Below the pieces are notes generated by a model, which saw only the letters and a list, made by a program, of their open reading frames with translations, did not search any database and was not told where the DNA came from. A stretch of 64,000 bases of DNA, from assembly GCA_023898785.1 (NCBI GenBank), contig CP060239.1:1417921-1481920 (forward strand). Reading direction: 5' to 3'. Positions 6,804 through 54,546 of this stretch are shown here, one piece after another. Both the position numbers and the translations under genes were made by a program. The DNA comes from Rhodospirillales bacterium. Its GTDB lineage: Bacteria; Pseudomonadota; Alphaproteobacteria; Micavibrionales; Micavibrionaceae. Each line of letters begins with the position of its first letter. The stretch's first letter is position 1.

Positions 6804-7436
6804 TTAGGCGCCGCGCTTAGAGCTTGTTGATTTGTTAGGCGCTTTTTTAGGCGCGGCTTTTTTTGCTCCGGCTTTTTCGCCTTTTTCAGCCTTAGGAGTG
6901 ACTTTCTTTTTCTCGGCTGGTTTTTTCTCGGCTGGTTTTTTCTCGGCTTTAGCTTTTTCGGCTTTTTCTTTATTCTTTGCTACGGTTTCTTTCAATTCTT
7001 CGGACGCTCCCACCGGCATGTCCTCGAAAACAGGACCAGAATCTTTGCCTTTGGCTTCGACGTCACGATCGACCAGCTCGATTACCGCCATCGGCGCGGC
7101 ATCGCCATAGCGGAAACCGGCTTTCAGAACGCGGGTATAACCACCAGAGCGTCCTTCGTAGCGCTCAGCCAGGACATCAAAGATTTTGCTAACCATAGCT
7201 TCGTCACGCATTTTGGAGATGGCCTGACGGCGTTTTCCAAGTGCAGTGGCCGGGTTGGCACTGGCTTGTTTACCCAATGTGATGAGTTTTTCGATATAGG
7301 GCTTGAGTTCCTTGGCTTTGGGCAAGGTCGTAGTGATCTGCTCATGTTTAACCAAGCTTGCCGCCATATTTGCCAGCATTGCCTTACGGTGGCTGGAGTC
7401 ACGGTTTAGTTTACGTTGTTTGATACGATGTTTCAT
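6804..7436 (-). CDS. rplQ: 50S ribosomal protein L17 with long Lys/Ala/Glu/Pro-rich C-terminal extension
   Basis: N-terminus [24 protein letters not shown]... is canonical L17. At 210 aa it is much longer than the usual L17. Confidence 0.95.
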
Positions 7437-7625
7437 CGAATCGTCCTTTCTGCACCACCTTTGGCGCGGCTGCGACTTTAAACGGGTAAAGCCATTTTAC
7501 ATAATGCAAACCCTCTGGGGAGAGATTAGCTGAGAGTATGTTGTTTTCCCGGCCTTGTTCGCATGTGGGGTACTCACCCCTATTTTTAAATGGGGCCCCG
7601 CAATGCCGCAGCCCCACATCAAACC

Positions 7626-9163: not shown

Positions 9164-9535
9164 TTACTTCTTCTTACCGGCAATCGGTTTTGCAGGGCCT
9201 TTGCGCGTACGGCAATTTGTTTTTGTACGCTGACCGCGAACAGACAAGCCATTACGGTGGCGCAGGCCACGATAGCATTTCATGTCCAACAACCGCTTGA
9301 TGTTCATGGATGTCTCGCGGCGCAGATCCCCTTCGATCATATAGGCGTCGGTGTCGATTTCGGCGCGGATGCGATTGAGTGTATCTTCGTCCAGTTCACC
9401 CATGCGCTTTTGTACATCGATTCCCAATTTGTCACAGATTTTAAAAGCGGTGGTACGGCCAATGCCATGAATATAGGTCAGGGCAATCGGCGTACGTTTT
9501 TTGTCGGGTACGTTAACCCCGGCAATACGTGCCAT
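9164..9535 (-). CDS. rpsM: 30S ribosomal protein S13
   Basis: [10 protein letters not shown]... is canonical S13. Confidence 0.95.
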
Positions 9536-9605
9536 TTCATTTTCCTTTCAATTTCAACTGAACCGTAAATGGCTCCGCGCGTTAAGCTTTCACCAGCCGG
9601 TTCAT

Positions 9606-9640
9606 AAACCAAAACACCCACAATAATGGGATTGTGGGTG
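9606..9640 (-). terminator. rho-independent terminator downstream of adk
   Basis: 10-bp stem CACCCACAAT/ATTGTGGGTG followed on the minus strand by TTTTGGTTT. Confidence 0.65.
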
Positions 9641-11791: not shown

Positions 11792-12532
11792 CTATTGCGC
11801 CAGTTTCTTGTCCCACTTGCTGCATTTTGAAGCGACGCGAGCATATTCCTGTGGGCTATCATGGGCTTTTTGGCGTTTGCCAAGTATGGGCATTATCTTG
11901 TTTTGATAAGCTTCAAGCTTGGACATGTATTGTTCTTGAATTTTCTTTTGTGCTTCATTAACTTGTGATTTCGGAATTGGGCCTATCGCCGGATCGATTT
12001 TGTACACGTATTTCGACAAGAAAACTTTAACCTTCGGTGAAAATTCACGGACAAATTTACGCAAGATTCGGATATGGCCTTTTTCGTGCGCCATTACGGC
12101 ATTATGTTCGCATGTCGAGCGGTTAAAATTGCTGGCAATATGAATTTCTGGTTTGGCGTAAAATGTAACTTCAAGCTGTTTGAGCTTTACGCAAGCCTTC
12201 CCCCCAGCTTCCGTGATTTCGAATTTGCCTTCCGTTTTGAATCCTATTTCGCCGCCGCCGAGACCGCCAACAGATGAACCTCCTCCTCCGTGAAGTTGTG
12301 TGAGGTCTTTGGAGGATTTGGTCCGAATATATTTCGTGCGTGTGGTCGCCGTTTTTACGGATAAGGACGGCTTTGAGGCTTTGCATGAAAGTTGTTCAGG
12401 TGCGCTTTGCGATGATTTATGGTTGTGTGATTTAGAAGAACTATGTGCAGATGCCTGCGCAGCATAGACCAAAATGCTCAAAAACGCATATAATATCAGT
12501 ATGTTGATTTTGTTTCTTGCCCTGCCCGTCAT
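11792..12532 (-). CDS. secreted hypothetical protein with HExxH motif (possible DUF922-like zinc peptidase)
   Basis: N-terminal signal-like segment (...ILILYAFLSILVYAAQASA), a Gly-rich linker, and ...AVMAHEKGHIRI... (HExxH). Visibly AT-richer than flanking r-protein genes. Confidence 0.55.
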   Translation of the reverse strand: MTGRARNKINILILYAFLSILVYAAQASAHSSSKSHNHKSSQSAPEQLSCKASKPSLSVKTATTRTKYIRTKSSKDLTQLHGGGGSSVGGLGGGEIGFKTEGKFEITEAGGKACVKLKQLEVTFYAKPEIHIASNFNRSTCEHNAVMAHEKGHIRILRKFVREFSPKVKVFLSKYVYKIDPAIGPIPKSQVNEAQKKIQEQYMSKLEAYQNKIMPILGKRQKAHDSPQEYARVASKCSKWDKKLAQ

Positions 12533-13186: not shown

Positions 13187-13597
13187 TTATGCCGCGTCTT
13201 CGACTTTAACCAGATGCTTGACTTTGTTGATCATGCCGCGCACGGAAGGCGTGTCTTCGAGTGTGCGGGTACGGTGCATCTTGTTGAGACCCAGACCGAC
13301 CAATGTTGCACGCTGGTAGGCTTTGCGGCCGATGGGTGAACCTATTTGCGTTACGGTCACTGTCTTACCAGACGATGTTTTCTTAGCGGCAGGCTTTTGG
13401 GCGGGAGCTTTTTTAGGAACGTCCTTTTTAGCCGTCTCTTTTTGGGGAGCTGCTTTTGCTGCTGTTTCCTTCTTCGGATCTGCCTTTTTAGCCTTGGCAG
13501 GTTTCTTAGCGGCAGGCTTTTGGGCTGCCTCTTTTTGGGCAGGCGCTTTCTTAGCTGCAGACTTCTTCGTTTTTATTTCTTTTTCGTCGGCCATCAT
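13187..13597 (-). CDS. rpmD: 50S ribosomal protein L30 with about 75-aa Lys/Ala/Pro-rich N-terminal extension
   Basis: The C-terminal ~60 aa (...[53 protein letters not shown]) is canonical L30. The N-terminus is AKKPA-type low complexity. Confidence 0.9.
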
Positions 13598-17220: not shown

Positions 17221-17613
17221 CTACTTATCTCCCTCTTTTGGGCCCTTCTTCTTTGCGGTTGTCTTTTTAGCAGCTGGCTTCTTAGCGGCGGGCTTCTTTT
17301 CTGCTTTTTTAGTCTCTTCCTTCTTAGGATCGGCTTTTTTAGAAGCAGGCTTCTTTTCTTCTTTCTTCGGCGCAGCAGCGGCATCGCCGGTGAAAAGTGT
17401 CCAGGTCTTGCGCTTGGAAATCGGGGCACATTCGATGATCTGAACACGATCGCCAACTTTTACAGCGTTGCTTTCATCATGCGCGGCATATTTGTCGGTT
17501 TTTTTAATGTATTTTTTGTAGAGCGGGTGCATGAAACGGCGTTCGACCAAAACCGTAATGGTCTTGTCCATTTTGTCGCTTACTACTTCACCTTCCAGAA
17601 TACGTTTTGGCAT
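17221..17613 (-). CDS. rpsQ: 30S ribosomal protein S17 with about 50-aa Lys/Ala/Pro-rich C-terminal extension
   Basis: Canonical S17 core (...[29 protein letters not shown]...) followed by ...[38 protein letters not shown].... Confidence 0.93.
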
Positions 17614-18312: not shown

Positions 18313-18499
18313 CGCTCTGGTTCCTTATTTTCTTAGGCAAAACACGCAAAAAGATCAATCACATGGACTTTTCTTACTTCGTAAGAGAGTTCCCATATGG
18401 ACGCTTTATCTTTCGGCGTTTTCGCAGCGTTCAATTAGATTCTGGCGCTTTATATCCTGCCTACCATCAAGTTGCAAGAAAAAACTTGCCAAAACAAAG

Positions 18500-19202: not shown

Positions 19203-19499
19203 TTATAATTCCGTGCCCGCAGGCTGTTGTTCTACTCTTATAAAATTACCGTCTTTGTTCTGTATCATATGACCGTTCACGCCATTTAAAATTTCTTCGC
19301 TGGTTGCCAAAACTTCGCTTCCGTCTATGAGAGAAACGGGAGCGGAGCTTGCAACAAGTTTCCAGACATCACCGTACACCCTCTCTTTTGTTTCAGCCTC
19401 TCCTAACCTTATAAGTTCGTCAATTCCCGCAACAGGGATGTCTACGAAGAATTCGTCCGATTTTCCATGTTTTCGAAATGAAATTTTTAACTCAGACAT
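19203..19499 (-). CDS. orphan small protein (98 aa) inserted between rplV and rpsC
   Basis: Same strand as the operon, SD AAGGAG 6-7 nt before the ATG, AT-richer than neighbours. No family recognised. Confidence 0.5.
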
Positions 19500-19537
19500 T
19501 CTTTACTCCTTGTTACGCAGTTTAACCCCTTTTAAGT

Positions 19538-19915
19538 CTATGCCTCTTCTGTTTCGCGCACGACAATCATCATGTTTGAGAATTTTTTCTCAATGCGTGC
19601 GGCGCGGCCACGGGCGCGGGCGCGGAAACGCTTCATTTTCAGTGTTTTACCGACGCTGGCTTCGGCTACGACCAGACGATCAACATCCAGACCGTGGTTG
19701 TTTTCCGCATTGGCGATTGCCGATTGCAACAGCTTGCGCACGTCGCCAGCCATGCGGCGATTGGAAAATTCCAGATCGATCAAAGCGCGACCGGCATTCT
19801 TGCCACGGATGGTTTGTGCAATCAGGTTGAGCTTTTGCGGCGAAGTCTGAAAATACTTCCCGTAAGCCATCGCTTCATTATCTTTAACGCGGCGTGCGTT
19901 TTTATCCTGTCCCAT
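19538..19915 (-). CDS. rplV: 50S ribosomal protein L22
   Basis: Canonical L22 (...[27 protein letters not shown]...). Confidence 0.95.
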
Positions 19916-19920
19916 TGTCC

Positions 19921-20199
19921 TTAACCTTTCTTGGCTTTCTTGTCTGCGCCGTGACCGTGATATGTACGGGTCGGTGCGAATTCACCCAATTTATGACCGA
20001 TCATCTGGTCGCTGATCACAACCGGAATGAACTTTTTGCCGTTGTGAACGCCGAATGTCAGGCCGACAAAGTTCGGCAAAATTGTGCTGCGGCGTGACCA
20101 AGTTTTGATCACCGTGTTTTTGCCGGCATTGCGAGCTTCCTCGACTTTTTTGAGGATGCTTTTTTCAACAAACGGGCCTTTCCATACACTGCGTGCCAT
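19921..20199 (-). CDS. rpsS: 30S ribosomal protein S19
   Basis: [11 protein letters not shown]... is canonical S19. Confidence 0.95.
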
Positions 20200-20212
20200 G
20201 TCCTAGTTCTCC

Positions 20213-21037
20213 TTATTTCTTACGTCGGCGGATAATGTATTTATCCGTCGCTTTGTTCTTGCGTGTTTTATACCCTTTGGTCGGTACGCCCCACGGCGTC
20301 ACAGGGTGACGACCACCGGATGTGCGGCCTTCACCACCACCATGCGGGTGATCAACCGGGTTCATCACAACGCCGCGAACATGCGGGCGTTTGCCTTTCC
20401 AGCGCTGACGACCGGCTTTACCGTCGTTGGTGTTCATATGATCGGGGTTGGATACAGCGCCAACAACGGCGATACAGTCGCCACGAACCACGCGCAGTTC
20501 GCCGGAGGAAAGTTTTACCTGCGCATAGCCCTGATCACGCCCGACGAGCTGGGCGAATGTTCCGGCAGAGCGGATCATCTGTGCACCTTTGCCGGGCTTC
20601 ATTTCGATGTTGTGAATGATGGTTCCCACAGGCATGCGGCGCAAGGGCATCGCATTGCCGGGTTTTACATCCACTTTTTCACCGGCGATGATTTTATCAC
20701 CGACATTGAGACGCTGTGGAGCAACGATGTAGCGTTTTTCCCCATCTGCATATGTGATCAGAGCGATAAAGGCTGTGCGGTTCGGGTCATATTCGAGGCG
20801 CTCGACTGTACCTTCGATGTCCCATTTGTCGCGCTTCCAGTCGATCATGCGGTAGCGGCGCTTGTGGCCTCCGCCGATGTGGCGGGAGGTAATGCGGCCT
20901 GCATTGTTGCGCCCGCCGGTCTTGGTCAAACCTTCGGTGAGGGTCTTTTCCGGCTTGCCCTTATACAGATCCTTGCGGTCAATTTGCACCAACTGGCGCT
21001 GACCTGGCGATGTGGGGTTATACTTCTTTAATGCCAT
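20213..21037 (-). CDS. rplB: 50S ribosomal protein L2
   Basis: Canonical L2 (...[14 protein letters not shown]...). Confidence 0.95.
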
Positions 21038-21100
21038 TTTCTTCTTCCTTTATTCACCCGTTCTCGGCGGGCCACCATAGTTAAAATTCCTTATCAGAGG

Positions 21101-21307
21101 CTAAAGCCCAAAATGACTTTCGTAGTCTTGTTGTACCTCTCCTAAAAGACAGCACTCTACCGGACCCTCACCTTGCCGCGCATCTCTCGTAGCGGCAGCT
21201 ACAAGACTGTCTGTAATGCCGAGTCCTTCACCACGCGCCGCATCATTTTGGATATCTCTCAATGCCAGCTGTTCTGCTGTTTTTCTTGCTGCTTTAACAA
21301 AACTCAT
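21101..21307 (-). CDS. orphan small protein (68 aa) inserted between rplW and rplB
   Basis: Same strand, SD AAAGGAGAA about 6 nt before the ATG. No family recognised. Confidence 0.45.
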   Translation of the reverse strand: MSFVKAARKTAEQLALRDIQNDAARGEGLGITDSLVAAATRDARQGEGPVECCLLGEVQQDYESHFGL

Positions 21308-21328
21308 CTTTTTTCTCCTTTACTCAGT

Positions 21329-21643
21329 TTAAACTCCGGTGCCTGTATCAATTGTCTGGCCATCTTCCAAGGTTACAATCGCTTTTTTGAAATCGGAGCG
21401 CTTGCCCATGATGCCTTTAAAGCGTTTGGTCTTACCCTTTTGAATGAGCGTATTGACAGCCTTGACCTTGACATCGAAGAGGGCTTCGACCGCTTCTTTG
21501 ATTTCAGGCTTGGTTGCGTCTTTGGCGACTTTAAATGTCACCTGACCGTGCTCGGAACCCATTGTCGCTTTTTCCGTGATATGCGGCGCGATAACGGTGT
21601 TGTAGTTCTTGACGGTCGCTTCTTGTTTTTTTGCTTTTGCCAT
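21329..21643 (-). CDS. rplW: 50S ribosomal protein L23
   Basis: Canonical L23 core (...[32 protein letters not shown]...). Confidence 0.95.
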
Positions 21644-21647
21644 GGCC

Positions 21648-22271
21648 TTAACCTTTCAATTTCTCTGTGATGTCCTTGACGGCATCTTTTGTCAGCACCA
21701 GAACATCGCGGCGCAGGATGTCGTAAACATTTGCACCAGCGCTTGGCAATACATCTATGCGCGGCAGGTTGGCGGTGGCGCGGGCGAAATTGACGTCCAC
21801 TTCCTTGCCGCCAACGATCAAGGCGTTGTCCAGTTCGAGCTTTTTCAGTGCTGCAGCCATCGGCTTGGTTTTGTGATCCTTGGCTTTGGCTTCATCCAGG
21901 ATGATCAGCTTGCCTTGGGCAGCCTTGCTTGAAAGTGCTGATTTCATTGCCAATTGACGAATTTTCTTCGGCAATTGGATCGCGTGTGAGCGAACAACCG
22001 GACCATGGACAACAGCGCCGCCACGGTCGATATTGCGCTTCAGGTCGCCTGCGCGGGCACGGCCTGTGCCTTTTTGGCTCCAGGGTTTTTTACCGGTGCC
22101 GGACACTTCACAACGTGTTTTGGCTTTGTGATTGCCAGAGCGGCGCGCCGCCAGTTGGTAATTCACCATCTGGTGCAAAATGTCCTGACGGACTTCGGCG
22201 CCAAAGATGTCTTTATCAAGCGTAATTTCGCCTGAAGCTTTACCATCCAATGTTTTGACTGCGATTTTCAT
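21648..22271 (-). CDS. rplD: 50S ribosomal protein L4
   Basis: Canonical L4 (...[18 protein letters not shown]...). Confidence 0.95.
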
Positions 22272-22274
22272 CTC

Positions 22275-23045
22275 TTAGTCTTCCTTCTTTTCTGAAGTTT
22301 CTTCAGTTTTTGTTTCTTCAGCCGGAGCTTCTTCTTTAGCAGCTTGAGGCTTGGCAGTTTCTTTCAAACCGGCGGGAAACGGTGCGTCTTTATGCGCAGG
22401 CTTCTTAACCGCATCATTGATCAGAACCCATCCCTGTTTTGCGCCGGGGACTGCGCCCTTAACCAAAATCAAACCGTCTTCTTCATCAACAGCAACGATT
22501 TGCAGATTTTGTGTTGTCACGCGTTCATCGCCAAGGTGACCGGCCATTTTCTTGCCTTTAAAGACCCGGCCCGGTTCCTGACACTGGCCGGTTGAGCCGT
22601 GCGCACGGTGGGAAACCGACACGCCGTGCGAAGCCCGCAGACCGCCGAAGTTGTGGCGCTTCATCCCGCCGGCGAAGCCTTTACCCTTGGACGTTGCCGT
22701 GACATCAACAAACTGACCGGAGACAAAGTGGTTCACGCTGAGCTGCGCGCCGATTTCGAGGAGGTTCTCATTGGCAACGCGGAATTCCACGACTTTTTTC
22801 TTTGGCTCGATTTTTGCCTTGGCAAACACACCACGATTGGCCTTGGATGTCCGCTTGATCTTGGCTTTACCCGCACCGAGCGCGACAGCGCTATAGCCGT
22901 CTTTTTCTTCGGTGCGCACGCCTACAACCTGACACTCATCGAGCTTTAATACTGTTACAGGCACATGACGGCCATCCTCGTCAAAAATGCGAGTCATGCC
23001 TTCCTTACGTGCAATCAGTCCTGTTCTTTGTCTTTCAACACTCAT
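22275..23045 (-). CDS. rplC: 50S ribosomal protein L3 with acidic/Lys-rich C-terminal tail
   Basis: Canonical L3 core (...[17 protein letters not shown]...) plus tail ...[26 protein letters not shown]. Confidence 0.95.
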
Positions 23046-23108
23046 TTTCTTTTCCTTCCCAGAGGTTGGCCTTAAGTAACCAACGTAGAGTCAAAACAAT
23101 CCATTATT

Positions 23109-23435
23109 TTAAGCGGCTTGCATCTGGCCAATCTTGATTTCAACGTCCACGCCTGCGGGCAAATCAAGCTTCATCAAAGCGTCGATTGTCTGCGGAGTGG
23201 GGTCAATTACATCTAAAAGTCTTTTGTGAGTCCGCATTTCGAACTGCTCTTGCGAGTTTTTGTTCACGTGCGGAGAGCGAATGACAGAAAACTTTGTAAT
23301 ACGGTTGGGCAAAGGCACCGGACCACGTACAGAAGCGCCGGTGCGCTTTGCGGTGTTCAGGATCTCGCTGCTGGCGGTATCCAGAATGCGATGATCAAAT
23401 GCCTTTAATGTGATCCGAATGCTTTGCGCGTCCAT
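23109..23435 (-). CDS. rpsJ: 30S ribosomal protein S10
   Basis: ...[14 protein letters not shown]... is canonical S10. Confidence 0.95.
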
Positions 23436-23465
23436 AACTTTGTTTCCTTCTTACGCTTTAATCAC

Positions 23466-24644
23466 TTACTCGACGATTTTGGAGACGACGCCGGCACCGA
23501 CGGTGCGGCCGCCTTCGCGGATTGCAAAGCGCAGACCTTCGCTCATCGCGACAGGCGCGATCAGCTCGACTTCCATACCGTTGATGTTATCGCCGGGCAT
23601 CACCATCTCGGTGCCGCTTGGCAACGTCACTTCACCGGTCACGTCCGTCGTTCTGAAGTAGAACTGCGGGCGATACTTCGTAAAGAATGGTGTGTGACGA
23701 CCGCCTTCATCCTTCGACAGAATGTAGGCTTCGGCCATGAATTTCTTGTGCGGCGTGATCGAGCCGGGCTTACACAAAACCTGACCGCGCTCAACTTCCT
23801 CACGCTTGGTCCCGCGCAGCAAGACACCAACATTGTCACCGGCTTCGCCGCGATCAAGCAGCTTGCGGAACATTTCAACGCCCGTGCAGACAGTCTTTTG
23901 CGTGTCGCGGATACCAACGATTTCAATCTCGTCGTTCACATTGATCACGCCTTGCTCAATACGACCCGTAACAACCGTTCCACGGCCGGAAATCGAGAAT
24001 ACGTCTTCAACAGGCATCAGGAAGTCTTTGTCAATTTCACGCGCAGGTGTCGGAATATATTCATCGACAGCCTTGAGCAGCTCAACAATCGAATTCTCAC
24101 CAATCTCAGGATCGCGCCCTTCCACAGCAGCCAAAGCCGAGCCTTTGATAATCGGAATTTCATCGCCGGGGAATTCATAGGAAGAGAGCAATTCACGCAC
24201 TTCCATCTCAACCAGCTCCAGCAATTCTTCATCGTCAACCTGGTCGACCTTGTTCAGGTACACCACCAGAGCAGGAACGCCCACCTGACGCGCCAGCAAG
24301 ATGTGCTCACGGGTCTGCGGCATCGGACCGTCAGCCGCGTTCACAACCAAAATCGCACCGTCCATCTGCGCCGCACCCGTGATCATGTTCTTCACATAGT
24401 CCGCGTGGCCCGGGCAGTCCACATGCGCATAGTGGCGCTTGTCCGTCTCGTACTCAACATGAGCCGTCGAAATCGTGATCCCGCGCGCTTTTTCCTCAGG
24501 CGCCTTGTCGATCTTGTCAACGCTCTCACCATTGCCATACTTCTTCGCAATCGCCGCCGTCAGCGTCGTCTTACCATGGTCAACGTGACCAATCGTACCA
24601 ATATTCGCATGCGGCTTGTTTCTTTCAAATTTTTCCTTGCTCAT
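23466..24644 (-). CDS. tuf: translation elongation factor Tu
   Basis: ...[14 protein letters not shown]...DCPGHADY...NKVD... are the canonical EF-Tu G-motifs. Confidence 0.97.
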
Positions 24645-24713
24645 TTTTCAATGCTCCTTTTTAAAAACTATTAAATTCTTATAGGTTCCCGCTTTCTCGG
24701 GAATTTACTCGCT

Positions 24714-26822
24714 CTAAGCTCCTAAACTTTCTTTCACTTCCGCCGCCACATTTGCCGGAACCGGTTCGTAGTGGTCGAACTGCATCGTATATTGCGCGCG
24801 GCCTTGCGACATTGAGCGCAATGTATTGATATAGCCGAACATGTTGGCCAGCGGCACGTGCGCGTCGATGACTTTTGCGTTTCCGCGATCACCCATGCCC
24901 GCCACCTGACCGCGGCGAGAGTTCAAGTCGCCGATAATGTCGCCCATATATTCTTCAGGGGTCACCACTTCAACCTTCATCATGGGCTCAAGCAATTGCG
25001 GGCCGGCCTTTTGCATCGCTTCTTTAAACGCGGCTTTGGCGGCAATTTCAAAGGCCATGACAGAGGAGTCAACATCGTGATAGGCACCGTCCACCAGCGT
25101 GGCTTTGAAGTCGACAACCGGGAAGCCCGCGATAATGCCGGTTTCCTTGGCCATTTGCAGACCTTTTTCAACGCCGGGAATGTATTCTTTCGGTACGTTT
25201 CCGCCAACGACCTTGCTTTCGAATGAGAAGCCTTCGCCAGCTTCGGCAGGTTCAAAAACCATGTCGATTTTCGCGAACTGACCGGAGCCACCCGTTTGTT
25301 TTTTGTGGGTGTAGGACAGTTCGGTGACTTTGGTGATTGTCTCACGATAGGCTACTTGCGGCGCACCGATATTCGCTTCGACTTTAAATTCGCGCTTCAT
25401 GCGGTCGACAAGAATGTCGAGGTGCAGTTCACCCATACCGGCAATGATGGTTTGACCGGATTCATGGTCAACCTTGACGCGGAAGGACGGGTCTTCTGCG
25501 GCCAAACGTTGCAGGGCTTGTGACATTTTTTCCTGGTCAGCCTTGGTTTTTGGCTCGACGGCAATTTCGATCACCGGCTCAGGGAATTCCATGCGCTCAA
25601 GCACAACCGGCTTATCTTTATCGCAAAGTGTGTCACCGGTCGTTGTATCTTTCATGCCCACGAACGCTACGATGTCACCGGCATGGGCGATAGAAAGCTC
25701 TTCGCGGTTATTTGAGTGCATCAAGAGCATCCGGCCCACACGTTCGCGCTTGTCTTTTACAGAGTTCATGACGTAGGAACCGGATTCGATGGTCCCGGAA
25801 TATATACGCGCAAATGTCAAAGAGCCGACAAACGGGTCGTTCATGATTTTAAAGGCCAGCGCAGAGAATGGCGCAGCGTCATCAGGCGCACGGGTTTCCG
25901 GTTCGTCAGAGTCAACCTTATGCCCCTTTACCGCGCCGATGTCCAACGGAGACGGCAAATATTCGACAACAGCATCGAGCATCGGCTGAACGCCTTTGTT
26001 CTTGAACGCCGTTCCGCACATGACAGGAACGAATGCGCCCGCGATCGTGCCTTTACGGATGCATTTTTTCAAGGTTTCCTCATCGGGTTCATTGCCTTCG
26101 AGGTAGGCTTCCATGGCCGCATCATCTTGTTCAACAGCCAGTTCAACCAGCTTTTCGCGGTACTCAGCAGCTTTGTCAGCCAGATCGGCCGGGATATCTT
26201 CGTAAGCATATGTCGCGCCCAGCGCCTCGCCGTCCCAGACAACGGCCTTCATGCGCACAAGATCCACATGGCCGACATAATTGTTTTCGGCACCGATCGG
26301 AAGCTGGATTACGCAAGGCACAGCGCCGAGGCGATCAATGATCATATCAACTGTGTTGTAAAAATCTGCGCCGATTTTATCCATTTTGTTCACGAAACAC
26401 ATGCGCGGCACATGGTATTTATCAGCCTGACGCCACACGGTTTCGGTTTGCGGCTCAACGCCGGCGTTCGCATCAAACACGGCAATCGCGCCGTCAAGCA
26501 CGCGCAAGGAGCGCTCAACCTCAATTGTGAAGTCCACGTGGCCCGGCGTGTCGATAATATTCAGGCGAAAACGCTGACCAGAGAACGGACCGTCCTTCGG
26601 CGCGTCCCAGAAGGTGGTGGTCGCAGCAGAGGTAATCGTGATGCCACGTTCCTGCTCCTGCTCCATCCAGTCCATGGTGGCCGCACCATCATGCACTTCA
26701 CCAATTTTGTGGGACTTACCGGAATAAAACAAAATACGCTCGGTCGTTGTGGTTTTACCCGCATCGATGTGCGCCATAATGCCGAAGTTCCGGTAGTTCT
26801 CAATTGCGTGTTCGCGTGTCAT
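24714..26822 (-). CDS. fusA: translation elongation factor G
   Basis: ...[20 protein letters not shown]... is canonical EF-G. Confidence 0.97.
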
Positions 26823-26858
26823 TTTCAGTTTCCAGTTAGCGGTTAATCAGTTAGCGGT

Positions 26859-27401
<543 letters not shown>

Positions 27402-27405
27402 CTAT

Positions 27406-27600
27406 CTATTTAATTCCACAAATATCTGGACCATAAATTTCTAAATACTCTCGCACTGCTGCCGTATAATTCTCATGGCGAGGCGCATAAACACTATCCA
27501 ACTCCAAGCGTTGTTCTGCATTAAGCCCCCCGAGAGCCACAGCCGCCGTGTGCTGCGCCACAATATCCATACCCTGTTCAAAATGTTTGTACTCAGACAT
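27406..27600 (-). CDS. orphan small protein (64 aa) inserted between rpsL and rpsG
   Basis: Same strand, with 15-nt and 13-nt gaps to its neighbours. AGGAG overlaps the rpsL stop about 12 nt upstream of the ATG. AT-richer than flanks. Confidence 0.4.
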   Translation of the reverse strand: MSEYKHFEQGMDIVAQHTAAVALGGLNAEQRLELDSVYAPRHENYTAAVREYLEIYGPDICGIK

Positions 27601-27615
27601 CTTTAAAAACCACTC

Positions 27616-27987
27616 CTATTTCGGACGTTTCGCGCCGTAGCGTGAACGGGCCTGTTTACGATCTTTAACGCCTTGGGTATCGAGCGTTCCACGAATAATG
27701 GTGTAGCGCACACCGGGCAAGTCTTTCACACGACCGCCACGCACAAGAACAACGGAGTGCTCCTGCAAATTGTGACCTTCACCGGGAATGTAGCAAATCA
27801 CTTCCAAGCCTGTCGTCAAACGCACCTTGGCGACCTTACGCAAAGCGGAGTTCGGTTTCTTCGGCGTTGTTGTATAAACGCGGGTGCAGACGCCGCGGCG
27901 TTGCGGGTTGCTTTTCAGCGCCCGGTTTTTCTTTGCTTTTACAACTTTTTGTCTCGGCTTGCGCACGAGCTGTTGAATAGTTGGCAT
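27616..27987 (-). CDS. rpsL: 30S ribosomal protein S12
   Basis: [12 protein letters not shown]... is canonical S12. Confidence 0.97.
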
Positions 27988-28171
27988 ATTTCTAAAGCCT
28001 CTTTTTAAATCTCATTTTTAAGGATGGCTGCATATAGCGTCAGAAAGACACGCAAGTCCAGAACTTTTTTTCACAAAGTGAAAAGGACTTTTTATTGCAG
28101 AGCATCCTGTTTCTTTCAGGATGTTGCACCAAACGGGTTCAAACCCTTAAGGCCCAACAGATTCTGGCGGG

Positions 28172-28200
28172 AATATAGGAGGAATCGATTCCGGCGTCAA
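28172..28200 (-). promoter_or_regulatory. putative sigma70 promoter of the rpsL (str) operon: TTGACG, 17 nt spacer, TATATT
   Basis: The minus strand reads cccTTGACGccggaatcgattcctccTATATTccc, about 185 nt upstream of the rpsL ATG. Confidence 0.55.
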
Positions 28201-28216
28201 GGGTTTATTTTACGAA

Positions 28217-28801
28217 TCATCGGGGCTGATCTGGTTCAGTGTTTTTGGACAAATCAACTGGCCATGTATTTGAGGTTTTAGGCCTCGTCACATGCATGTT
28301 TTCAACCTCGTATAAAGCTCCGATTTTCCATGCATCTAAGCACCTGTGGGAAGCCAGTGGTGCAATGGCACTTCCTTGCGGGTCGACCGCTTCTATAAAA
28401 TCTTTTGCCGCATCATAGGACTTAAAGCACATAAAACCGGCGGCGGCGCTTGTAAATTCAGCGCTTATGCGCGGGATGTTAAAGCTGTGCGTCTCTGTCT
28501 CCACTTGCCCCGCTCCATTCGGAAGAACTTCAAATATATACGGCTTTACCGTCACCTCAAGGCCCAGATAGAGGGCCTGCGGCAGTTTTTTTTCCTGTTC
28601 CTGTGCGGTGCGAACAAGAGCCTTGATCTTTGAAAGCACCGGCAGAACAAAGTTATTTTCCGCGCCGGATTGCTGCGCTATCCCTTCAAAGAAGGAAAAA
28701 CCCATATGTTCGACCAAAGAGGCAAAATCTGGAATGTCTATTGAGAGTTGTTCCGGATCTGCGCTTATTTCCTTTAAGGTTTTTTCATTGAGGATGCTCA
28801 T
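28217..28801 (-). CDS. orphan hypothetical protein (194 aa) between the rpoC terminator and the rpsL promoter
   Basis: ATG at 28801 (MSILNEKTLKEIS...). The longer track ORF (TTG at 28888) would include the rpoC terminator hairpin, so the internal ATG is preferred. No family recognised. Confidence 0.5.
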   Translation of the reverse strand: MSILNEKTLKEISADPEQLSIDIPDFASLVEHMGFSFFEGIAQQSGAENNFVLPVLSKIKALVRTAQEQEKKLPQALYLGLEVTVKPYIFEVLPNGAGQVETETHSFNIPRISAEFTSAAAGFMCFKSYDAAKDFIEAVDPQGSAIAPLASHRCLDAWKIGALYEVENMHVTRPKTSNTWPVDLSKNTEPDQPR

Positions 28802-28870
28802 TAACGGCCCTTTTTGTGTGCTGTAGGAATGCGCGTTTTTAGTAGCTCCATTGTTATATGTCAATAAATA

Positions 28871-28898
28871 AACAAAAAGGGGCTGCAAAGCCCCTTTT
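28871..28898 (-). terminator. rho-independent terminator downstream of rpoC
   Basis: Stem GGGGCT/AGCCCC with a 4-nt loop, followed on the minus strand by TTTTTGTTTATTT. Confidence 0.7.
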
Positions 28899-28927
28899 CT
28901 TATATTTTTACGATTGACCGGTTTGGT

Positions 28928-31900
28928 TTAACCGTTGGCGGCTTCTTTGGCCTCTTCTTCGGGCGCGGACGTATCAGCGGCGGAAAGCGCGGCGGCGTCA
29001 TTGGCACCTTCGAGGATTTCCTCTTCAGGCTGGGGCTGGCTATCCAGGATCACCTGATCCCGCTCGGCCGCGATGCGTTTAACGCCCGCAGTATAAGCAC
29101 CTGTCCCAGCCGGGATGAGGCGGCCAACAATGACGTTTTCTTTCAGTCCAAACAGCTTGTCGACCTTGCCTTGTACGGCAGCTTCGGTCAGAACGCGTGT
29201 TGTTTCCTGGAAGGACGCGGCCGAGATAAAGCTGCGCGTTTGCAGAGATGCTTTGGTGATCCCCTGCAGAACGGGCTTGCCAACCGGCGGGCGCTTACCT
29301 TCAGATTCGTATTTGGCGGTGATCTCGTCGAATTCACTGCGCTCGACATGTTCTCCGACAAGGAATGTCGAGTCGCCGACTTCGGTGATTTCAACCTTTT
29401 GCATCATCTGGCGTACAATCACCTCGATATGCTTGTCGTTGATTTTCACCCCTTGCAGGCGATAAACATCCTGCACTTCATTGGTGAGGTAGTCTGCCAA
29501 GGCTTCCACGCCCATAACATCGAGGATGTCGTGCGGCACCAGAGCCCCGTCGAGGATCGGGTCGCCTTTGCGGACGAAGTCACCTTCATGCACGGCCAGG
29601 TGACGCCCCTTCGGCACAAGATATTCGCGCGGTTCGCCATCATCGGTGTTGGCCGGCTTCACAGCGATGCGGCGCTTGGACTTATAGTCTTTTCCGAATT
29701 CAACGTAACCATCGATCTCGGAAATGACGGCGAAGTCTTTGGGCATGCGGGCTTCGAACAGCTCGGCCACGCGCGGCAGACCGCCGGTAATGTCACGGGT
29801 TTTCGATGTCTCACGCGGAATACGTGCGATGATGTCACCCGCTTTGACTTCCTGCTCATTTTCGGCACTCAAAATCGTATCCACAGACAGATAGTAGTTC
29901 GCAGGCAAGCCGTTTGGCAGGTTAATCACTTTACCTTTCTTATCGAGCAGGCTGATGCGTGGTTTCAGATCGCCGCCTTTTGGCTGGGAACGCCAGTCGA
30001 TAATTTTCTTGGATGTAATCCCTGTTGCTTCATCAACATCGTCAGTGACGGAAACGCCGTCAACGAGATCGAAATAGTGGGCCACACCGTCTTTTTCGGT
30101 GATGACAGGCAATGTGTATGGGTCCCATTCGGCCATTTTGTCGCCGGCTTTGACCTTTTTGCCATCCTCGACCAGAAGTTTTGCACCGTATGGAACGCGG
30201 TGCGTGGCTTTTTCGTGGCCTTTTTTGTCTTTCAGGACAATTTCGGTATTGCGGCCCATGACGATGGTGAGCCCTTCCGAGTTTTTTACAACGTTTTGAT
30301 TGCGCACTTCGATGGTGGCATCGATGTTGGCATCAACATGAGAACGCTCGGCACCTTTTTGCGCCGCACCGCCAATGTGGAAAGTTCGCATTGTCAGCTG
30401 CGTACCAGGCTCGCCGATAGATTGCGCCGCCATAACGCCGATCGCTTCGCCGATATTGACCTCGGTGCCGCGGGCCAAATCCCGGCCGTAACATTTGGCG
30501 CAGATGCCGTTATGTTCGCCTTCACAGGTCAGGACAGAGCGAACGAGCACTTCATCAATTCCGGCGGTTTCGATTGCTTCGGTATTGTTTTCATCAAACA
30601 TTTCGGCGGCTTTAACGATTGTATTACCGTCAAGCGGGTTGATGACATCGACAGAGGCGCAACGGCCCATGATACGTTCGGACAAGGATACTACCACGTC
30701 AGCACCGTTCATGACTGCGCGCATAGAAATGCCTTTTTCCGTGCCGCAATCTTCTTCGGTAACGATGGCATCCTGGGCCACGTCAACAAGGCGGCGGGTC
30801 AGGTAACCGGAGTTGGCTGTTTTCAGAGCCGTATCGGCCAGACCTTTACGCGCACCGTGCGTGGAGTTGAAGTATTCCAGCACGGACAGACCTTCTTTAA
30901 AGTTTGAGATAATCGGCGTTTCGATAATCTCACCAGACGGCTTGGCCATCAAGCCGCGCATCCCGGCGAGCTGGCGGATCTGCGCTGCAGATCCCCGTGC
31001 TCCGGAGTGAGCCATCATGTAAACGGCATTGAGGTTGCCGCTTTCTATATTAGAGATTTTGCTCATCATCGCGTCGGCTACGTCATCGGTACATTTCGAC
31101 CAGATATCAACGACCTTGTTGTATTTCTCACCTTTGGTGATCAGACCGTCTTGATATTGCTGCTCAAATTCCTTGACCTTGTCATTGGCTTCACCAACCA
31201 GTTTCTGCTTCTCATCGGGGATGATGAGGTCGTCTTTACCGAAGGAAATCCCAGCGATACACGCATAGCGGAAGCCGAGCTTCATCAAACGGTCAGCGAA
31301 GATCACAGTGTCTTTCTGGCCGCAGTGACGATAGGATTCCTCGATCACACAGGAGAGTTCTTTTTTGGTCAGAACCTGGTTGATCATGGAAAACGGAAGT
31401 TCCGGATGGCGCGGCAAGAGATCAGAGATTAAAATCCGACCCGGAGTCGATTCAACGATTTCTGTTTTCGGGTCACCATTTTCGTCAACTGTGTGATAAC
31501 GGCACTTAATTTTTGCGTGCAGGGAGAGTACTTTTTGTTCCAAGGCATGGGTAATTTCACCTGCGCCGCGGAAGATCATACCTTCGCCGGGTTCGCCATC
31601 GCGCGCCAATGACAAATAATACAGACCCAGAATAATATCCTGCGTCGGCACAATCACGGGTTTGCCGTTTGCGGGCGAAAGGATGTTGTTGGTTGCCATC
31701 ATCAAGCAGCGCGCTTCAAGCTGGGCTTCAATGGATAGCGGCACGTGAACGGCCATCTGGTCACCGTCAAAGTCGGCGTTGAAGGCGGTACATACCAGCG
31801 GATGTAAGTTGATCGCCTTACCTTCGATCAGTACAGGTTCGAAGGCCTGGATTCCAAGTCGGTGGAGCGTTGGCGCGCGGTTAAGCATCACCGGGTGTTC

Positions 31901-33154
31901 GCGGATGACTTCTTCGAGGATATCCCAAACTTCGGGGCGCTCTTTTTCAACCATTTTTTTGGCAGCCTTGACCGTGGAGGCCATGCCGTAAAGTTCAAGT
32001 TTGTGGTAGATGAAGGGCTTGAACAGCTCGAGCGCCATTTTCTTCGGAATACCGCACTGGTGCAGTTTCAGCTCAGGACCGACCACGATGACGGAACGGC
32101 CAGAATAGTCGACGCGTTTTCCGAGCAAGTTCTGGCGGAAACGGCCCTGTTTCCCTTTGAGCATGTCAGAAAGAGATTTCAACGGGCGTTTGTTGGCGCC
32201 GGTAATGACGCGGCCACGGCGACCGTTATCGAAGAGTGCATCCACGGATTCCTGGAGCATGCGTTTTTCGTTCCGGACGATAATGTCGGGGGCGCGCAGT
32301 TCGATCAGGCGTTTCAGGCGGTTGTTGCGGTTGATAACGCGACGATACAGATCGTTCAAATCAGACGTTGCAAAACGGCCACCATCCAAAGGCACCAGCG
32401 GGCGTAGTTCGGGCGGCAGCACGGGAATGATATCGAGGATCATCCATTCAGGGCGCGCGCCGGATTCGAGGAAGCTGTCGAGCAGTTTCAGGCGCTTGAC
32501 GAGTTTCTTGCGTTTGGCTTCGGAGCCGGTTTCGCGTAGATCTTCTTCGACCTGCACCTTGATTTCTTCCAGATCGAGACTGGAGAGAATTTCCTTCATG
32601 GCCTCGGCGCCGATACCGGCGCGGAAATTATCTTCGCCGTATTCGTCCTGCGCGGCGTAGTATTCTTCTTCGTTCAAAAGCTGGTATTGCTTGAGCGGGG
32701 TCATGCCCGGTTCGACGACAATGAAGTTTTCGAAATACAATACGCGCTCAAGGTCCTTAAGTGTCATGTCCATAATCAAGCCGATGCGCGATGGCAAGGA
32801 TTTCAAGAACCAGATGTGAGCGACCGGGCTGGCCAGGTCGATGTGGCCCATGCGCTCGCGGCGGACTTTGGTCAGGGTGACTTCAACGCCACATTTTTCG
32901 CAGATGATGCCTTTATATTTCATACGCTTGTATTTGCCGCACAGACATTCGTAATCCTTGATTGGGCCAAAGATGCGCGCGCAGAACAGACCGTCTTTTT
33001 CCGGCTTGAAGGTCCGATAGTTAATCGTCTCAGGCTTTTTGACCTCACCGAACGACCAGCTGCGGATTTGCTCCGGGCTTGCAATCGAAATACGGATGGA
33101 GTCAAAAGACTGCGGCCCTGTCGGCTGGCCAAAGAGGTTCATGAGTTCGTTCAT
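28928..33154 (-). CDS. rpoC: DNA-directed RNA polymerase subunit beta'
   Basis: Canonical RpoC, including the NADFDGDQM catalytic motif. SD AAGGAG is upstream. Confidence 0.97.
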
Positions 33155-33191
33155 TTTTCGTGCTCCTTAATTTGGGCTAATTTTTATATCT

Positions 33192-33380
33192 TTACTCGTG
33201 GCAAATGACAGTCAGATTACCTGCTGCCTGAAGTGCATTAACTTGTTCTGGCGAACCGCGCCCTGAATAAACAGCTTGCTCACCATCAAAATTAGTCATA
33301 TGCAACTCAGATATATTTTCCAATAGCGTTGCCGCTTCTTCATCATCTGGTCTTGCTATTACGCTAAAAACTTGTTGCAT
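33192..33380 (-). CDS. orphan small protein (62 aa) inserted between rpoB and rpoC
   Basis: ATG at 33378-33380, only 2 nt after the rpoB TAG stop. GGGAG lies 6 nt upstream, inside the rpoB 3' end. AT-richer than both flanks. The track's longer version overlaps rpoB. Confidence 0.45.
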   Translation of the reverse strand: MQQVFSVIARPDDEEAATLLENISELHMTNFDGEQAVYSGRGSPEQVNALQAAGNLTVICHE

Positions 33381-33382
33381 TA

Positions 33383-36300
33383 CTAGCTCCCGCTTGACTG
33401 TTTCAAATCGACATTGAGGCATAGGGCCTTCAATTCCTTGGTCAGAACGTTGAAGGATTCCGGAATACCGATTTCGAAGTTGTCTTCGCCGCGGACGATG
33501 GACTCGTAAACTTTGGAGCGACCGGCCACGTCATCGGACTTGACGGTGAGCATTTCCTGCAAGGTGTAAGCCGCGCCGTAAGCCTGCAGAGCCCAAACCT
33601 CCATCTCTCCGAAGCGCTGACCCCCGAACTGGGCTTTACCGCCCAGCGGTTGTTGCGTGACCAGAGAGTACGGCCCGATGGAGCGGGCGTGGATTTTATC
33701 ATCCACCAAGTGGTGCAGTTTAAGCATGTACATGTAGCCCACGGTCACATCGCGGTGGAAGTAATCTCCGGTGCGGCCATCGATCAGGCGGACCTGACCG
33801 GAGGTTTTGAGACCGGCTTTTTCGAGCAGCTCGGAGATGTCGGCATCGTGCGCCCCGTCAAAGACAGGCGTGGCCATCGGCACGCCTTCGCGCAAATTGC
33901 CTGCCATTTCGACGAGTTCCTTATCATCAAGCTTGGAGACCTTGCCTTTGTACTCGCTGTCACCGTAAGCGTCTTCGAGCTTGGCTGTGAGTTTTTTCTT
34001 CTCGGCGTCGCTCATTTTCTTATTGGACTGGAAGGCATCGATGATTTCACCGATCTGGCGGCCCATAGAAGCCGCAGCCCAGCCAAGGTGGGTTTCAAGG
34101 ATCTGCCCCACATTCATCCGTGAAGGCACGCCAAGCGGGTTGAGCACGATGTCAACGGGCGTTCCGTCTTCGGTGTAGGGCATGTCTTCTTGCGGGATCA
34201 CTTTCGAGACCACCCCTTTGTTTCCGTGACGACCGGCCATTTTGTCACCGGGCTGCATTTTACGTTTCACAGCCACGAAGACCTTGACCATCTTCATTAC
34301 ACCCGGAGGCAGTTCGTCACCCCGCTGGAGTTTTTCGACTTTATTCTCGAAACGCTCCTTGATGTTGTCAACCGCATCGTCAAACGTTCTGGACATGGCT
34401 TCGATTTCTTCCATGCGTTTTTCGTTTTCAATGGCGATCTGACGCCACAGACCGCGTTTCTCGATAGCGTCGATGTCAGCGGCAGTAAGCTTCGTGCCTT
34501 TTTTCAGTTTGGCATCTTTCGGCGCGCTTGCGACCGTGTTGCCAATCAGGATGTCGCGCAGACGGCCATAGAAGCCGTCTTCCAGAATACGGCGTTCGTC
34601 GTCGCGGTCTTTGGCGAGGCGTTCGATTTCCTGCGCCTCGATGGACAAGGCGCGAGCATCTTTATCGACGCCACGGCGGTTAAATACGCGCACATCGACG
34701 ATGGTGCCAACAGCGCCGGGTGGCAGACGTAGAGATGTATCCTTCACATCGGCGGCTTTTTCACCAAAGATGGCGCGCAGGAGTTTTTCTTCCGGCGTCA
34801 TCGGGCTTTCGCCTTTTGGCGTAACCTTACCGACGAGAATATCACCGGGGCCGACTTCAGCGCCGATATGCACGATCCCGGCTTCGTCAAGGTGGCGTAG
34901 AGCCTCTTCCCCGACATTCGGGATGTCACGGGTGATTTCTTCGGTGCCCAGCTTGGTGTCGCGGGCCATGACTTCGAATTCCTCAAGGTGGATTGAGGTG
35001 TAAACGTCATCACGCACGATGCGCTCGGATACGAGGATGGAATCTTCGTAGTTGTAGCCATTCCAGGGCATGAAGGCGACGAGGATGTTTTTCCCCAGCG
35101 CCAGTTCACCCATATCGGTTGACGGACCATCGGCGATGATGTCACCAGCCTTCACCTTATCACCTACCTTCACCAGAGGTTTCTGGTTGATACAGGTGCT
35201 TTGGTTTGAACGCTGGAATTTCGCGAGCTTGTAAATGTCCACAACCGGTTCATCCGCGTGCAGTTCTTCCGTGGCCTGAACCACGATCCGCGTGGCATCA
35301 ACCTTGGTCACCACACCAGCGCGGCGTGCAGAGACAGCAGCGCCAGAATCACGAGCCACAGTGCCCTCCATGCCTGTTCCGACGATCGGGGCAGAAGATT
35401 TGAGCAACGGCACAGCCTGGCGCATCATGTTGGAGCCCATCAGCGCACGGTTGGCATCATCGTTTTCCAAGAACGGGATAAGGGATGCGGCCACAGACAC
35501 CATTTGCTTCGGCGACACGTCGATAAATTCGATTTGGTCAGGCGGAGTCATTTCGTTTTCACCGGCGCGGCGACATGATACGAGGTCGTTGAGAAACTTG
35601 CCGGATTTATCGAGTTGTGAGTTGGCCTGAGCGATTGTCCATTTTGCCTCTTCCATCGCAGACATGTAGACCACTTCGTCGGTGACTTTGCCATTTTCAA
35701 CGCGACGATAGGGGCTTTCGATGAAACCATACTGGTTGACGCGGGCAAAGGTGGCCAGAGAGTTGATCAAACCGATGTTCGGACCTTCGGGCGTTTCAAT
35801 CGGGCAAATGCGGCCATAGTGAGTCGGGTGCACGTCGCGGACTTCAAAGCCTGCGCGTTCGCGGGTCAGACCGCCGGGACCGAGTGCTGAAAGGCGGCGT
35901 TTGTGCGTAATTTCCGAGAGCGGGTTGGTCTGGTCCATGAACTGGGAGAGCTGGGATGAGCCAAAGAACTCACGCACAGCGGCTTGCGCCGGTTTAGAGT
36001 TGATCAGATCGTGCGGCATGTAGGTGTCGATTTCAACGGAAGACATACGCTCACGAATTGCGCGCTCCATACGCAGCAGGCCGATGCGGATCTGGTTTTC
36101 CATCAATTCACCAACAGAGCGTACGCGGCGGTTACCGAGGTTGTCAATGTCATCGACTTCGCCCTGACCGTCTTTCAATCCGTGGAGATATTTTAGAATG
36201 GCGAGAATGTCGGCTTTTTCAAGTACGCGGAACTGGTCGTCCGCTTCGAGATCGAGGCGCGCATTCATTTTGACACGGCCAACCGGCGAGAGGTCATAAC

Positions 36301-54097: not shown

Positions 54098-54141
54098 TAC
54101 ATACCCTGCCAATAGTATAGGGCAGGGGCGTAAAGAAAGTT

Positions 54142-54492: not shown

Positions 54493-54546
54493 GGATTCTG
54501 ATCTTTGTATGTTCTTATGCGATAAACTATCAGACAAACTGCAAAG

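Follow-up and report, generated by a model that had tools for sequence, protein, structure and literature searches.

Putative orphan genes at internal junctions of the ribosomal-protein and RNA polymerase operons of an uncultured alphaproteobacterial genus

The str, S10, spc, and rpoBC clusters of ribosomal-protein and RNA polymerase (RNAP) genes are a textbook case of gene order frozen by selection. Here, we report four small, same-strand open reading frames (ORFs), o1 to o4, lodged at internal junctions of these clusters in a metagenome-assembled genome (MAG) that carries the NCBI source label "Rhodospirillales bacterium" (contig CP060239.1; the closest named relatives fetched include a Micavibrio sp. 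MAG). The window, i.e., the whole stretch of 64,000 nucleotides (nt) analyzed (positions 1,417,921 to 1,481,920 of the contig), holds on its minus strand, in alphaproteobacterial order, the array secE-nusG-rplKAJL-rpoBC-(terminator)-rpsL-rpsG-fusA-tuf, followed by the S10, spc, and alpha operons. The four ORFs appear mutually unrelated, each confined to one genus or species. On balance, they are probably taxonomically restricted orphan ORFs, captured serially inside the rpoBC, str, and S10 operons of one uncultured alphaproteobacterial genus and expressed by read-through. Positions and details are as follows.

19203-19499, minus strand: o1, 98 amino acids (aa), acidic (isoelectric point [pI] 4.7); rplV/rpsC junction, gaps of 38 and 19 nt; Shine-Dalgarno sequence (SD) AAGGAG at 19506-19511
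21101-21307, minus strand: o2, 68 aa, acidic (pI 4.7); rplW/rplB junction, gaps of 21 and 63 nt; SD AAGGAG at 21315-21320
27406-27600, minus strand: o3, 64 aa, acidic (pI 4.9); rpsL/rpsG junction, gaps of 15 and 13 nt; SD AGGAG within TAGGAG at 27613-27618
33192-33380, minus strand: o4, 62 aa, acidic (pI 4.3); rpoB/rpoC junction, gaps of 2 and 37 nt; SD GGGAG at 33387-33391

A first description of the window, made by a model from the letters and a list of ORFs (here called the sequence-only reading), had pointed out four same-strand ORFs of 62 to 98 aa at these junctions, with SDs and gaps of 2 to 63 nt, and both their coordinates and their anatomy were confirmed. The AGGAG of o3 overlaps the rpsL stop codon, with a rather long spacing to the ATG (12 nt), and the GGGAG of o4 sits within the final rpoB codons. 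The ORFs are also, as had been stated, poorer in G+C than the flanking genes (0.42-0.48 versus 0.47-0.58), and G+C at third codon positions (GC3) is 0.29-0.40 versus 0.48-0.64. The codon adaptation index (CAI; reference set, the ribosomal-protein and RNAP genes of the window) was 0.45-0.56 for o1 to o4, 0.61-0.81 for the reference genes, and 0.51-0.77 for ordinary window genes, which places the four at the bottom of the window's range. All are longer than chance allows: when each junction was shuffled 20,000 times and ATG-initiated ORFs of the observed length were counted, that length was reached in 3 (o1), 228 (o2), 36 (o3), and 64 (o4) shuffles.

At none of the four junctions was a terminator-like site found on the coding strand, and promoter-like matches near the ORFs were only weak (9/12, e.g., at the 3' end of rplV); the rpoC terminator is clear (28874-28899). 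The spacers downstream of the inserts (13-63 nt) are mutually unrelated. Each insert is a bare cassette of ribosome-binding site plus ORF, carrying neither a strong promoter-like nor a terminator-like site of its own. An Rfam search of positions 6000-41500 returned Alpha_RBS (9503-9607) and three weak small RNA matches, probably due to chance, none of which overlaps o1 to o4. The four junctions had been called almost invariably contiguous in bacteria. Among 80 other alphaproteobacterial species (S7 identity of 73% or lower), they are short (rplW/rplB, 5-51 nt; rplV/rpsC, 2-173 nt; rpoB/rpoC, 46-190 nt), and tblastn found no o1 to o4 homolog; the statement is too strong for rpsL/rpsG, where some sphingomonads have spacers of up to 295 nt that hold no convincing ORF.

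The exact proteins are recorded publicly as "hypothetical protein" in a 2.24-Mb Rhodospirillales bacterium MAG (USO049xx) and in two other MAGs, and each occurs on 21-28 independent contigs (NCBI, JGI, ENA, and Logan), which rules out assembly artefacts. For none of them was a Pfam or NCBIfam family (E up to 1) or a PHROG or PADLOC family found; a PDB sequence search returned nothing meaningful, tblastn against 50,697 phage and 72,556 plasmid records gave no match, and IMG/VR held no relative. An exhaustive phmmer search of 1.84 billion representatives yielded one 50% cluster per ORF (identities of 96% for o1, 72% for o2, 53% for o3, and 56% for o4), and word-index searches with o1 and o4 singly returned only their own 90% clusters. 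Pairwise similarity among the four did not exceed that of shuffled sequences (all z < 2.5), nor did it when five further junction-associated ORFs were added, among them the stacked ORF o0, the 57-aa and 86-aa ORFs of relatives, and the 75-aa ORF 3' of rplQ, all described below. The claim that the ORFs resemble neither each other nor a known family therefore holds.

Related loci (referred to by number, e.g., L099) give an order of gain. Identities of core proteins are 92.0% between the window and L099, 90.7% between the window and L100, and 90.1% between L099 and L100. The o1, o2, and o3 junctions are empty in L100 and in the independent contigs L101 and L102 (14, 51, and 11 nt, respectively). 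L099 has o2 and o3, and its rplV/rpsC junction is empty (12 nt). The o3 junction is empty, at 11-14 nt, in L100, L107, and L108, and empty junctions of 11-51 nt occur in L100, L108, L103, L004, and others. Since L100 is empty at o1 to o3 and L099 holds o2 and o3 without o1, the gains are nested on the phylogeny: o2, o3, and x223 (an ORF between operons, listed below) after the split from the L100 lineage, and o1 later, in the window's species only; the stacked ORF o0 is present or absent within the window's species complex.

The sequence-only reading had proposed looking for the same junctions in related genomes, and the diverged homologs that could be placed (those of o2, o3, and o4) do occupy the same junctions in sister genomes. 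Homologs of o2 lie between rplW and rplB in L092 and L099 (72-76% identity). A homolog of o3 stands directly after rpsL in L091 (53% identity), and another is present in L099 (~85% identity). That of o4 (56% identity) was found at rpoB/rpoC on 13 contigs, including L093-L098. Compared with these homologs, o2 to o4 keep their frame and near-full length; the sole length changes are one codon (o2) and a terminal Glu (o4), and no frame-disrupting indel was found. The ratio of nonsynonymous to synonymous substitution (dN/dS) is 0.27 for o2 (flanks, 0.05; Fisher p = 9e-4; differences at codon positions 1/2/3, 9/12/17), 0.27 for o3 (flanks, 0.02; p = 4e-4; 17/19/32), and 0.21 for o4 (flanks, 0.03-0.04; p = 1e-5; 22/16/37), at dS of 0.5-2 and with dN about 10 times that of the flanking genes. 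We conclude that o2 to o4 are real, fast-evolving protein genes under purifying selection. Frameshifted or unconserved sequence in sister genomes, named beforehand as the mark of non-coding spacers, is not what these three ORFs present: they are intact there. The dN/dS comparison that had been suggested along with it gave purifying values for o2 to o4 and, as described below, not for o1.

At the o2 junction, an element of the ancestral spacer has been kept 3' of the insert.

21061-21080, minus strand: ancestral rplW/rplB spacer element, CTATGGYGGC..CGCCGA, a small GC hairpin

In L100, L108, and L004, whose junctions are empty, this element immediately follows the rplW stop codon, and because it is retained downstream of o2, the entry point of o2 lies directly 3' of the rplW stop. 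The L099 allele of o2 is a mosaic, its ends like L092 and its middle like the window, and therefore recombination among alleles is indicated.

At the o3 junction, TAGGAG (27613-27618) serves rpsG in empty-site genomes and is used by o3 here. Codons 2-5 of rpsG (27378-27392) read AGC AGA AGA CGC in place of TCA CGT CGY CAT, a re-coding seen only in o3-bearing genomes, and the SD of rpsG (27393-27405) is weaker in these genomes. Insertion of o3 seems, from this comparison, to have rebuilt the 5' end of rpsG. The C terminus of o3 (27406-27420) has a conserved YGP[DE]ICGIK, with Cys at position -4 (CaaX-like). Pseudogenization of o3 and x223 in L099 was considered and rejected; the apparent frameshifts there are assembly errors, because rpsL in the same assembly also has 1-2-nt indels.

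The GGGAG of o4 is kept within rpoB despite saturated dS, and the adjacent Ser codon has changed from AGC to TCA. The C terminus of o4 (33192-33209) has a conserved LTVICH. An AlphaFold2 (AF2) model built from two sequences only (predicted local distance difference test [pLDDT], 89; predicted template modeling score [pTM], 0.72) has the order β-α-β-β-α-β, so that o4 is predicted with confidence to be a compact ferredoxin-like domain. Foldseek returned generic PII/ACT/RRM-type and de novo design matches from many superfamilies (best E, 5e-3 to 0.07; TM score, 0.5-0.7). Structure prediction had also been suggested by the sequence-only reading; it was informative for o4, and the AF2 model of o1 is poor (pLDDT, 49).

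The case of o1 is different. A search of 5.8 billion proteins yielded one 90% cluster only, so that o1 is species-specific. Its three alleles are separated by 11 nonsynonymous changes and 1 synonymous change; a dN/dS of 0.25 is rejected (p = 0.002), neutrality is not (p = 0.23), and the alleles show no sign of purifying selection. Between L125 and L112, o1 differs at 8/297 nt, clustered in codons 51-77, and rplV, o0, rpsC, and rplP together differ at 3/1812 nt (Poisson p, 5e-8), a pattern that points to diversifying selection or else to an imported, diverged allele. On these data, o1 is a young ORF of unproven coding status. A further acidic orphan of 106 aa, o0 (L112, 826-1146), lies 5' of o1 in rplV/rpsC, where it replaces the window's 38-nt leader. 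It is unrelated to o1. The two are stacked in L112, L114, L117, and L125, whose sampled ribosomal proteins are 93-100% (mostly 100%) identical to those of the window.

Other inserts occur in relatives. L099 has an ORF of its own (57 aa) in fusA/tuf (5089-5262). In the L107/L108 lineage, an 86-aa ORF lies in rplB/rpsS (L108), and the 455-nt rpoB/rpoC junction of L107 holds an ORF with a signal-peptide-like N terminus and DxDxDG repeats. The L120-L123 lineage has an 85-aa ORF in rpsJ/rplC and a 240-aa SIMPL-domain gene in rpoB/rpoC. Together with o0 to o4, this makes at least 10 unrelated inserts at at least 7 intra-operon junctions of a clade with core-protein identities of 76-92%. Function is not predictable from position, because each of three lineages has a different, unrelated gene in rpoB/rpoC, a SIMPL-domain gene among them. 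Paralogy between o4 and the 57-aa ORF of L099 (S-x-EQ..L..AG) was considered and rejected (z = 0.6, within shuffles).

We propose that orphan ORFs entered the intercistronic spacers singly, each adding a cistron to the polycistronic host mRNA, from which it would be translated under the strongest constitutive promoters of the cell. What the inserts share would be a landing site, not a function, since a promoterless newcomer would be expressed there at once. Conserved flanks could act as homology arms, by which an occupied junction may spread, or swap alleles, through homologous recombination among related strains. The products would be small, acidic, cytosolic accessory proteins of unrelated functions, dispensable and subject to quick turnover; o1 would be a very young gene that is under diversifying selection or not yet constrained.

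This proposal agrees with what has been described for operons in general, where ORFans have been found enriched in new operon pairs, apparently through insertions that exploit the native promoter, where insertions within pre-existing operons are much rarer than additions at the ends, and where a phage origin has been suggested for ORFans (Price, Arkin and Alm 2006, "The Life-Cycle of Operons", PMC1480536). Like those ORFans, o1 to o4 are restricted to close relatives (no homolog was found beyond them), lie on the same strand as and near native genes (gaps of 2-63 nt) that are adjacent to each other in outgroups, and stand downstream of a native promoter; gene age matches junction age, expression from the native promoter is probable, and the genes evolve fast under purifying selection. 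Unlike in the general description, all four here are internal and in the most conserved operons known, the insertions are recurrent (at least 7 junctions and at least 10 unrelated ORFs, two of them stacked at one site), and a phage origin finds no support in the phage-record, PHROG, and IMG/VR searches. The four thus match the known pattern of ORFans entering native operons, in its rare subtype of internal insertion (PMC1480536). A literature search on insertions in ribosomal-protein operons found nothing relevant.

Several points weigh against capture of unrelated orphans. Searches of the window, the compared loci, and the phage, plasmid, and IMG/VR collections revealed no donor of the inserts, mobility gene, repeat, or target duplication. 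Family-less ORFs are also common in the window outside these operons. Uniform acidity (pI of 4.1-5.2 for all junction ORFs, beside very basic ribosomal proteins) could hint at a shared ribosome-related role. All sequence evidence comes from MAGs and metagenome contigs, and one relative, L099, has an assembly rich in indels. A metagenome scan anchored on the rpsC start gave 5 loci, of which 1/5 came from this lineage.

Of the two possibilities raised by the sequence-only reading, one was that the products are small proteins expressed stoichiometrically with the ribosome or RNAP. In this form, o1 to o3 would serve the ribosome, and o4 RNAP, as accessory subunits or assembly factors specific to the lineage, co-encoded for synthesis in step. 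Small accessory proteins of RNAP and the ribosome include the Firmicute RNAP δ and ε subunits, Thermus Thx, and phage T7 Gp2; δ, ε, and Gp2 are examples of small acidic proteins that bind RNAP or basic ribosomal proteins, and by analogy this precedent would favor such a role. The position of o1 to o4 inside operons with their own SDs and no terminators is consistent with it, as are their small size and acidity, purifying selection on o2 to o4, and the confidently predicted domain of o4. The likeness to δ, ε, Thx, and Gp2 lies in small size and, for several of those proteins, in acidity. Those proteins, however, are conserved across their own lineages, with association shown biochemically, whereas the ORFs here are absent from congeners, and the fold of o4 finds only generic matches. 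Presence is not lineage-wide: the congener L100, with core proteins ~91% identical, lacks o1 to o3, and L099 lacks o1, at 90-92% core identity. Moreover, the families are unrelated and each occurs in one genus or species, their CAI values, unexpectedly for products made at ribosomal-protein level, are the window's lowest, their dN is ~10-fold that of flanking genes, and relatives place SIMPL-domain and signal-peptide-like genes in rpoB/rpoC. Dispensability in a congener, poor codon adaptation, and fast evolution argue against the subunit role, and we regard it as unlikely.

The other possibility, a class of small hitchhiking genes in highly transcribed operons, fits better, in that the genes are unrelated, restricted to a genus or a species, variably present among genomes with 90-92% identical core proteins, and stackable, and relatives hold different genes at these junctions and elsewhere in the operons; the term "class" does not hold, since o1 to o4 do not appear to form one by sequence or mobility (no shared repeats, ends, or recombinase). 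A separate reading would make them orphan immunity, antitoxin, or decoy proteins in an arms race, e.g., against basic toxins that hit translation or transcription, kept constitutively high by host operons and accumulating like cassettes. In its favor are the small size, acidity, and fast evolution of the ORFs, the stacking of a pair of orphans in a single junction, the variable presence among strains, and, for o1, both the 11:1 excess of nonsynonymous changes and the cluster of 8 differences between strains. Yet no PADLOC, Pfam, or PHROG match was found, no toxin partner lies nearby, the dN/dS of o1 (>1) is by itself not significantly off neutrality, its substitution cluster could be an imported allele, and o2 to o4 are under purifying rather than diversifying selection. 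We consider this reading distinctly improbable, and we place equally little weight on a broader one, in which core-operon junctions would be a distributed, recombinase-free capture platform that continually gains, stacks, and exchanges promoterless genes for small acidic proteins, and at least some of these proteins (e.g., o1), under diversifying selection, would be immunity or decoy factors shielding the ribosome or RNAP from interbacterial toxins.

Very unlikely, in our judgment, is that the inserts are footprints or cargo of a small mobile element that targets operon junctions, whether a miniature inverted-repeat transposable element (MITE) or repetitive extragenic palindrome (REP), an integron-type cassette, or a free-standing homing gene. 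The same junctions have been struck repeatedly across lineages, REP-like palindromes lie in rpoB/rpoC of L002 and rplA/rplJ of L110 and L111, and the cassettes are promoterless and of single orientation. However, the four inserts have no common sequence, and no terminal inverted repeats, attC-like palindromes, target-site duplications, or shared motifs were found at their ends; no copies were found elsewhere in the window or in 125 loci (the set, with the window, in which copies and shared motifs were sought), no integrase-like gene lies beside any junction in the 64-kb window, and no nuclease or recombinase domain was found in o1 to o4 (Pfam, E up to 1). No HNH, GIY-YIG, or LAGLIDADG domain of homing endonucleases is present, and 62-98 aa is very small for a nuclease. 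Integron cassettes and recombinase-associated arrays of small orphan immunity genes consist, like the inserts, of small ORFs in a single orientation that lack a promoter and depend on one upstream, and they too are stackable, strain-variable, and of unrelated families; they differ in their attC-like repeats, shared boundaries, and integrase or recombinase, none of which was seen here, and in forming one array, whereas o1 to o4 are scattered over junctions of housekeeping operons. REP/MITE and Rickettsia palindromic elements are likewise small insertions in conserved gene arrays, and such elements occur in junctions of relatives (L002 and L110), but o1 to o4 are single-copy, non-palindromic, and mutually unrelated, and at least three are protein-coding under selection. 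Two other origins were tried and rejected: local duplication or de novo origin from neighboring DNA (no similarity found) and a phage or plasmid origin (no match in the phage, plasmid, and IMG/VR collections).

Least probable of all is that the inserts are non-coding spacers, regulatory or junk, with fortuitous open frames, an explanation to which we give hardly any credence for the set as a whole. Codon usage is poor in all four, and o1 is species-specific, without purifying selection, and poorly modeled. Against this stand the rarity of the observed ORF lengths in shuffles, the length and frame held by o2 to o4 at dS of 0.5-2 and dN/dS of 0.2-0.3, the pLDDT of 89 reached for o4 from two sequences, and the lack of any Rfam family match. 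The explanation is possible for o1 alone.

Serial capture of orphans, the explanation we prefer, would mean that in this lineage the internal junctions of clusters known for their frozen order tolerate and repeatedly fix brand-new genes. This bears on how orphan genes gain expression, on how far polarity and stoichiometry constrain these operons, and on whether conserved flanks aid the spread of new genes by recombination. The nested series offers a natural time course of gene gain, from empty site to one orphan to two stacked, spanning older, constrained genes and a young one without purifying selection. Any protein of the set that proved to bind the ribosome or RNAP would count as a new accessory factor.

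Three further features lie within or between the same operons.

11792-12532, minus strand: x246, a 246-aa ORF at the rplO/secY junction, with a hydrophobic, signal-peptide-like N terminus as read from the sequence
18347-18400 (core, within 18313-18499), minus strand: conserved, non-coding hairpin plus U-run in the rpsC/rplP spacer
28217-28801, minus strand: x223, a ~195-aa family-less ORF, flanked by the rpoC terminator (28874-28899) and, 5' of rpsL, by a promoter-like site (28172-28200)

Library matches of x246 are only weak (YxzE and DUF922). In L099 and L100, rplO/secY holds homologs of x246 with 63-68% identity, and in L100 a second ORF as well. Six lineages, with S7 identities as low as 66%, share the rpsC/rplP hairpin, which L004 lacks; RNAalifold gave 14 pairs, 7 of them with compensatory changes, and Rfam gave no match. 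Its appearance is that of an attenuator or terminator acting in cis within the S10 operon. The sequence-only reading had tentatively grouped both sites with the four inserts: at rplO/secY there is indeed a real gene, conserved in the genus, and the rpsC/rplP spacer, an RNA hairpin with a U-run, does not belong to the same process. By its position, x223 is an inter-operon insert, not an intra-operon one. It has a homolog in L099 (69% identity) and is missing from the sister contig L091 (322-nt gap) and from L100 (308 nt).

The rpoA/rplQ spacer (7437-7625, minus strand; 189 nt), the third site that the sequence-only reading had tentatively grouped with the inserts, contains GC-rich inverted repeats, ATGTGGGG...CCCCACAT, and the only same-strand ORF listed there (68 aa, GTG start; 7411-7617) overlaps the start of rplQ. 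Directly 3' of rplQ, at the end of the alpha operon, lies a 75-aa orphan of low GC3 (6335-6562, minus strand), for which only a near-identical cluster was found; it is possibly a case of the same kind, added at an operon end. Lys/Ala/Pro-rich, histone-H1-like extensions are present in L17 (rplQ, 6804-7436), L30 (rpmD, 13187-13597), S17 (rpsQ, 17221-17613), and L29 (rpmC, 17628-17882). They show up as direct-repeat families D1-D3 and vary in length among close relatives, and L30 has a weak Pfam HC2 match.

Elsewhere in the window, 54142-54897 and 53183-54112 (minus strand) hold tandem, paralogous, family-less ORFs of 131 and 116 aa with the common N terminus MEFVNKDADM.LVNTTPEELKKLAAIMRACH, adjoined by a family-less ORF of 309 aa. 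GC3 of all three is low, at 0.39-0.42, and together they resemble an orphan-gene island of its own.

Palindromic elements of the REP/MITE type were seen in relatives, in rplA/rplJ of L110 (9181-10000) and L111, where the spacer is 820 nt long versus 260 nt in the window, and in rpoB/rpoC of L002. Sporadic junction ORFs also occur outside the studied clade, because in L009, a Novosphingobium MAG, the 292-nt rpsG/fusA spacer is filled by a 71-aa ORF with a hydrophobic C-terminal tail.

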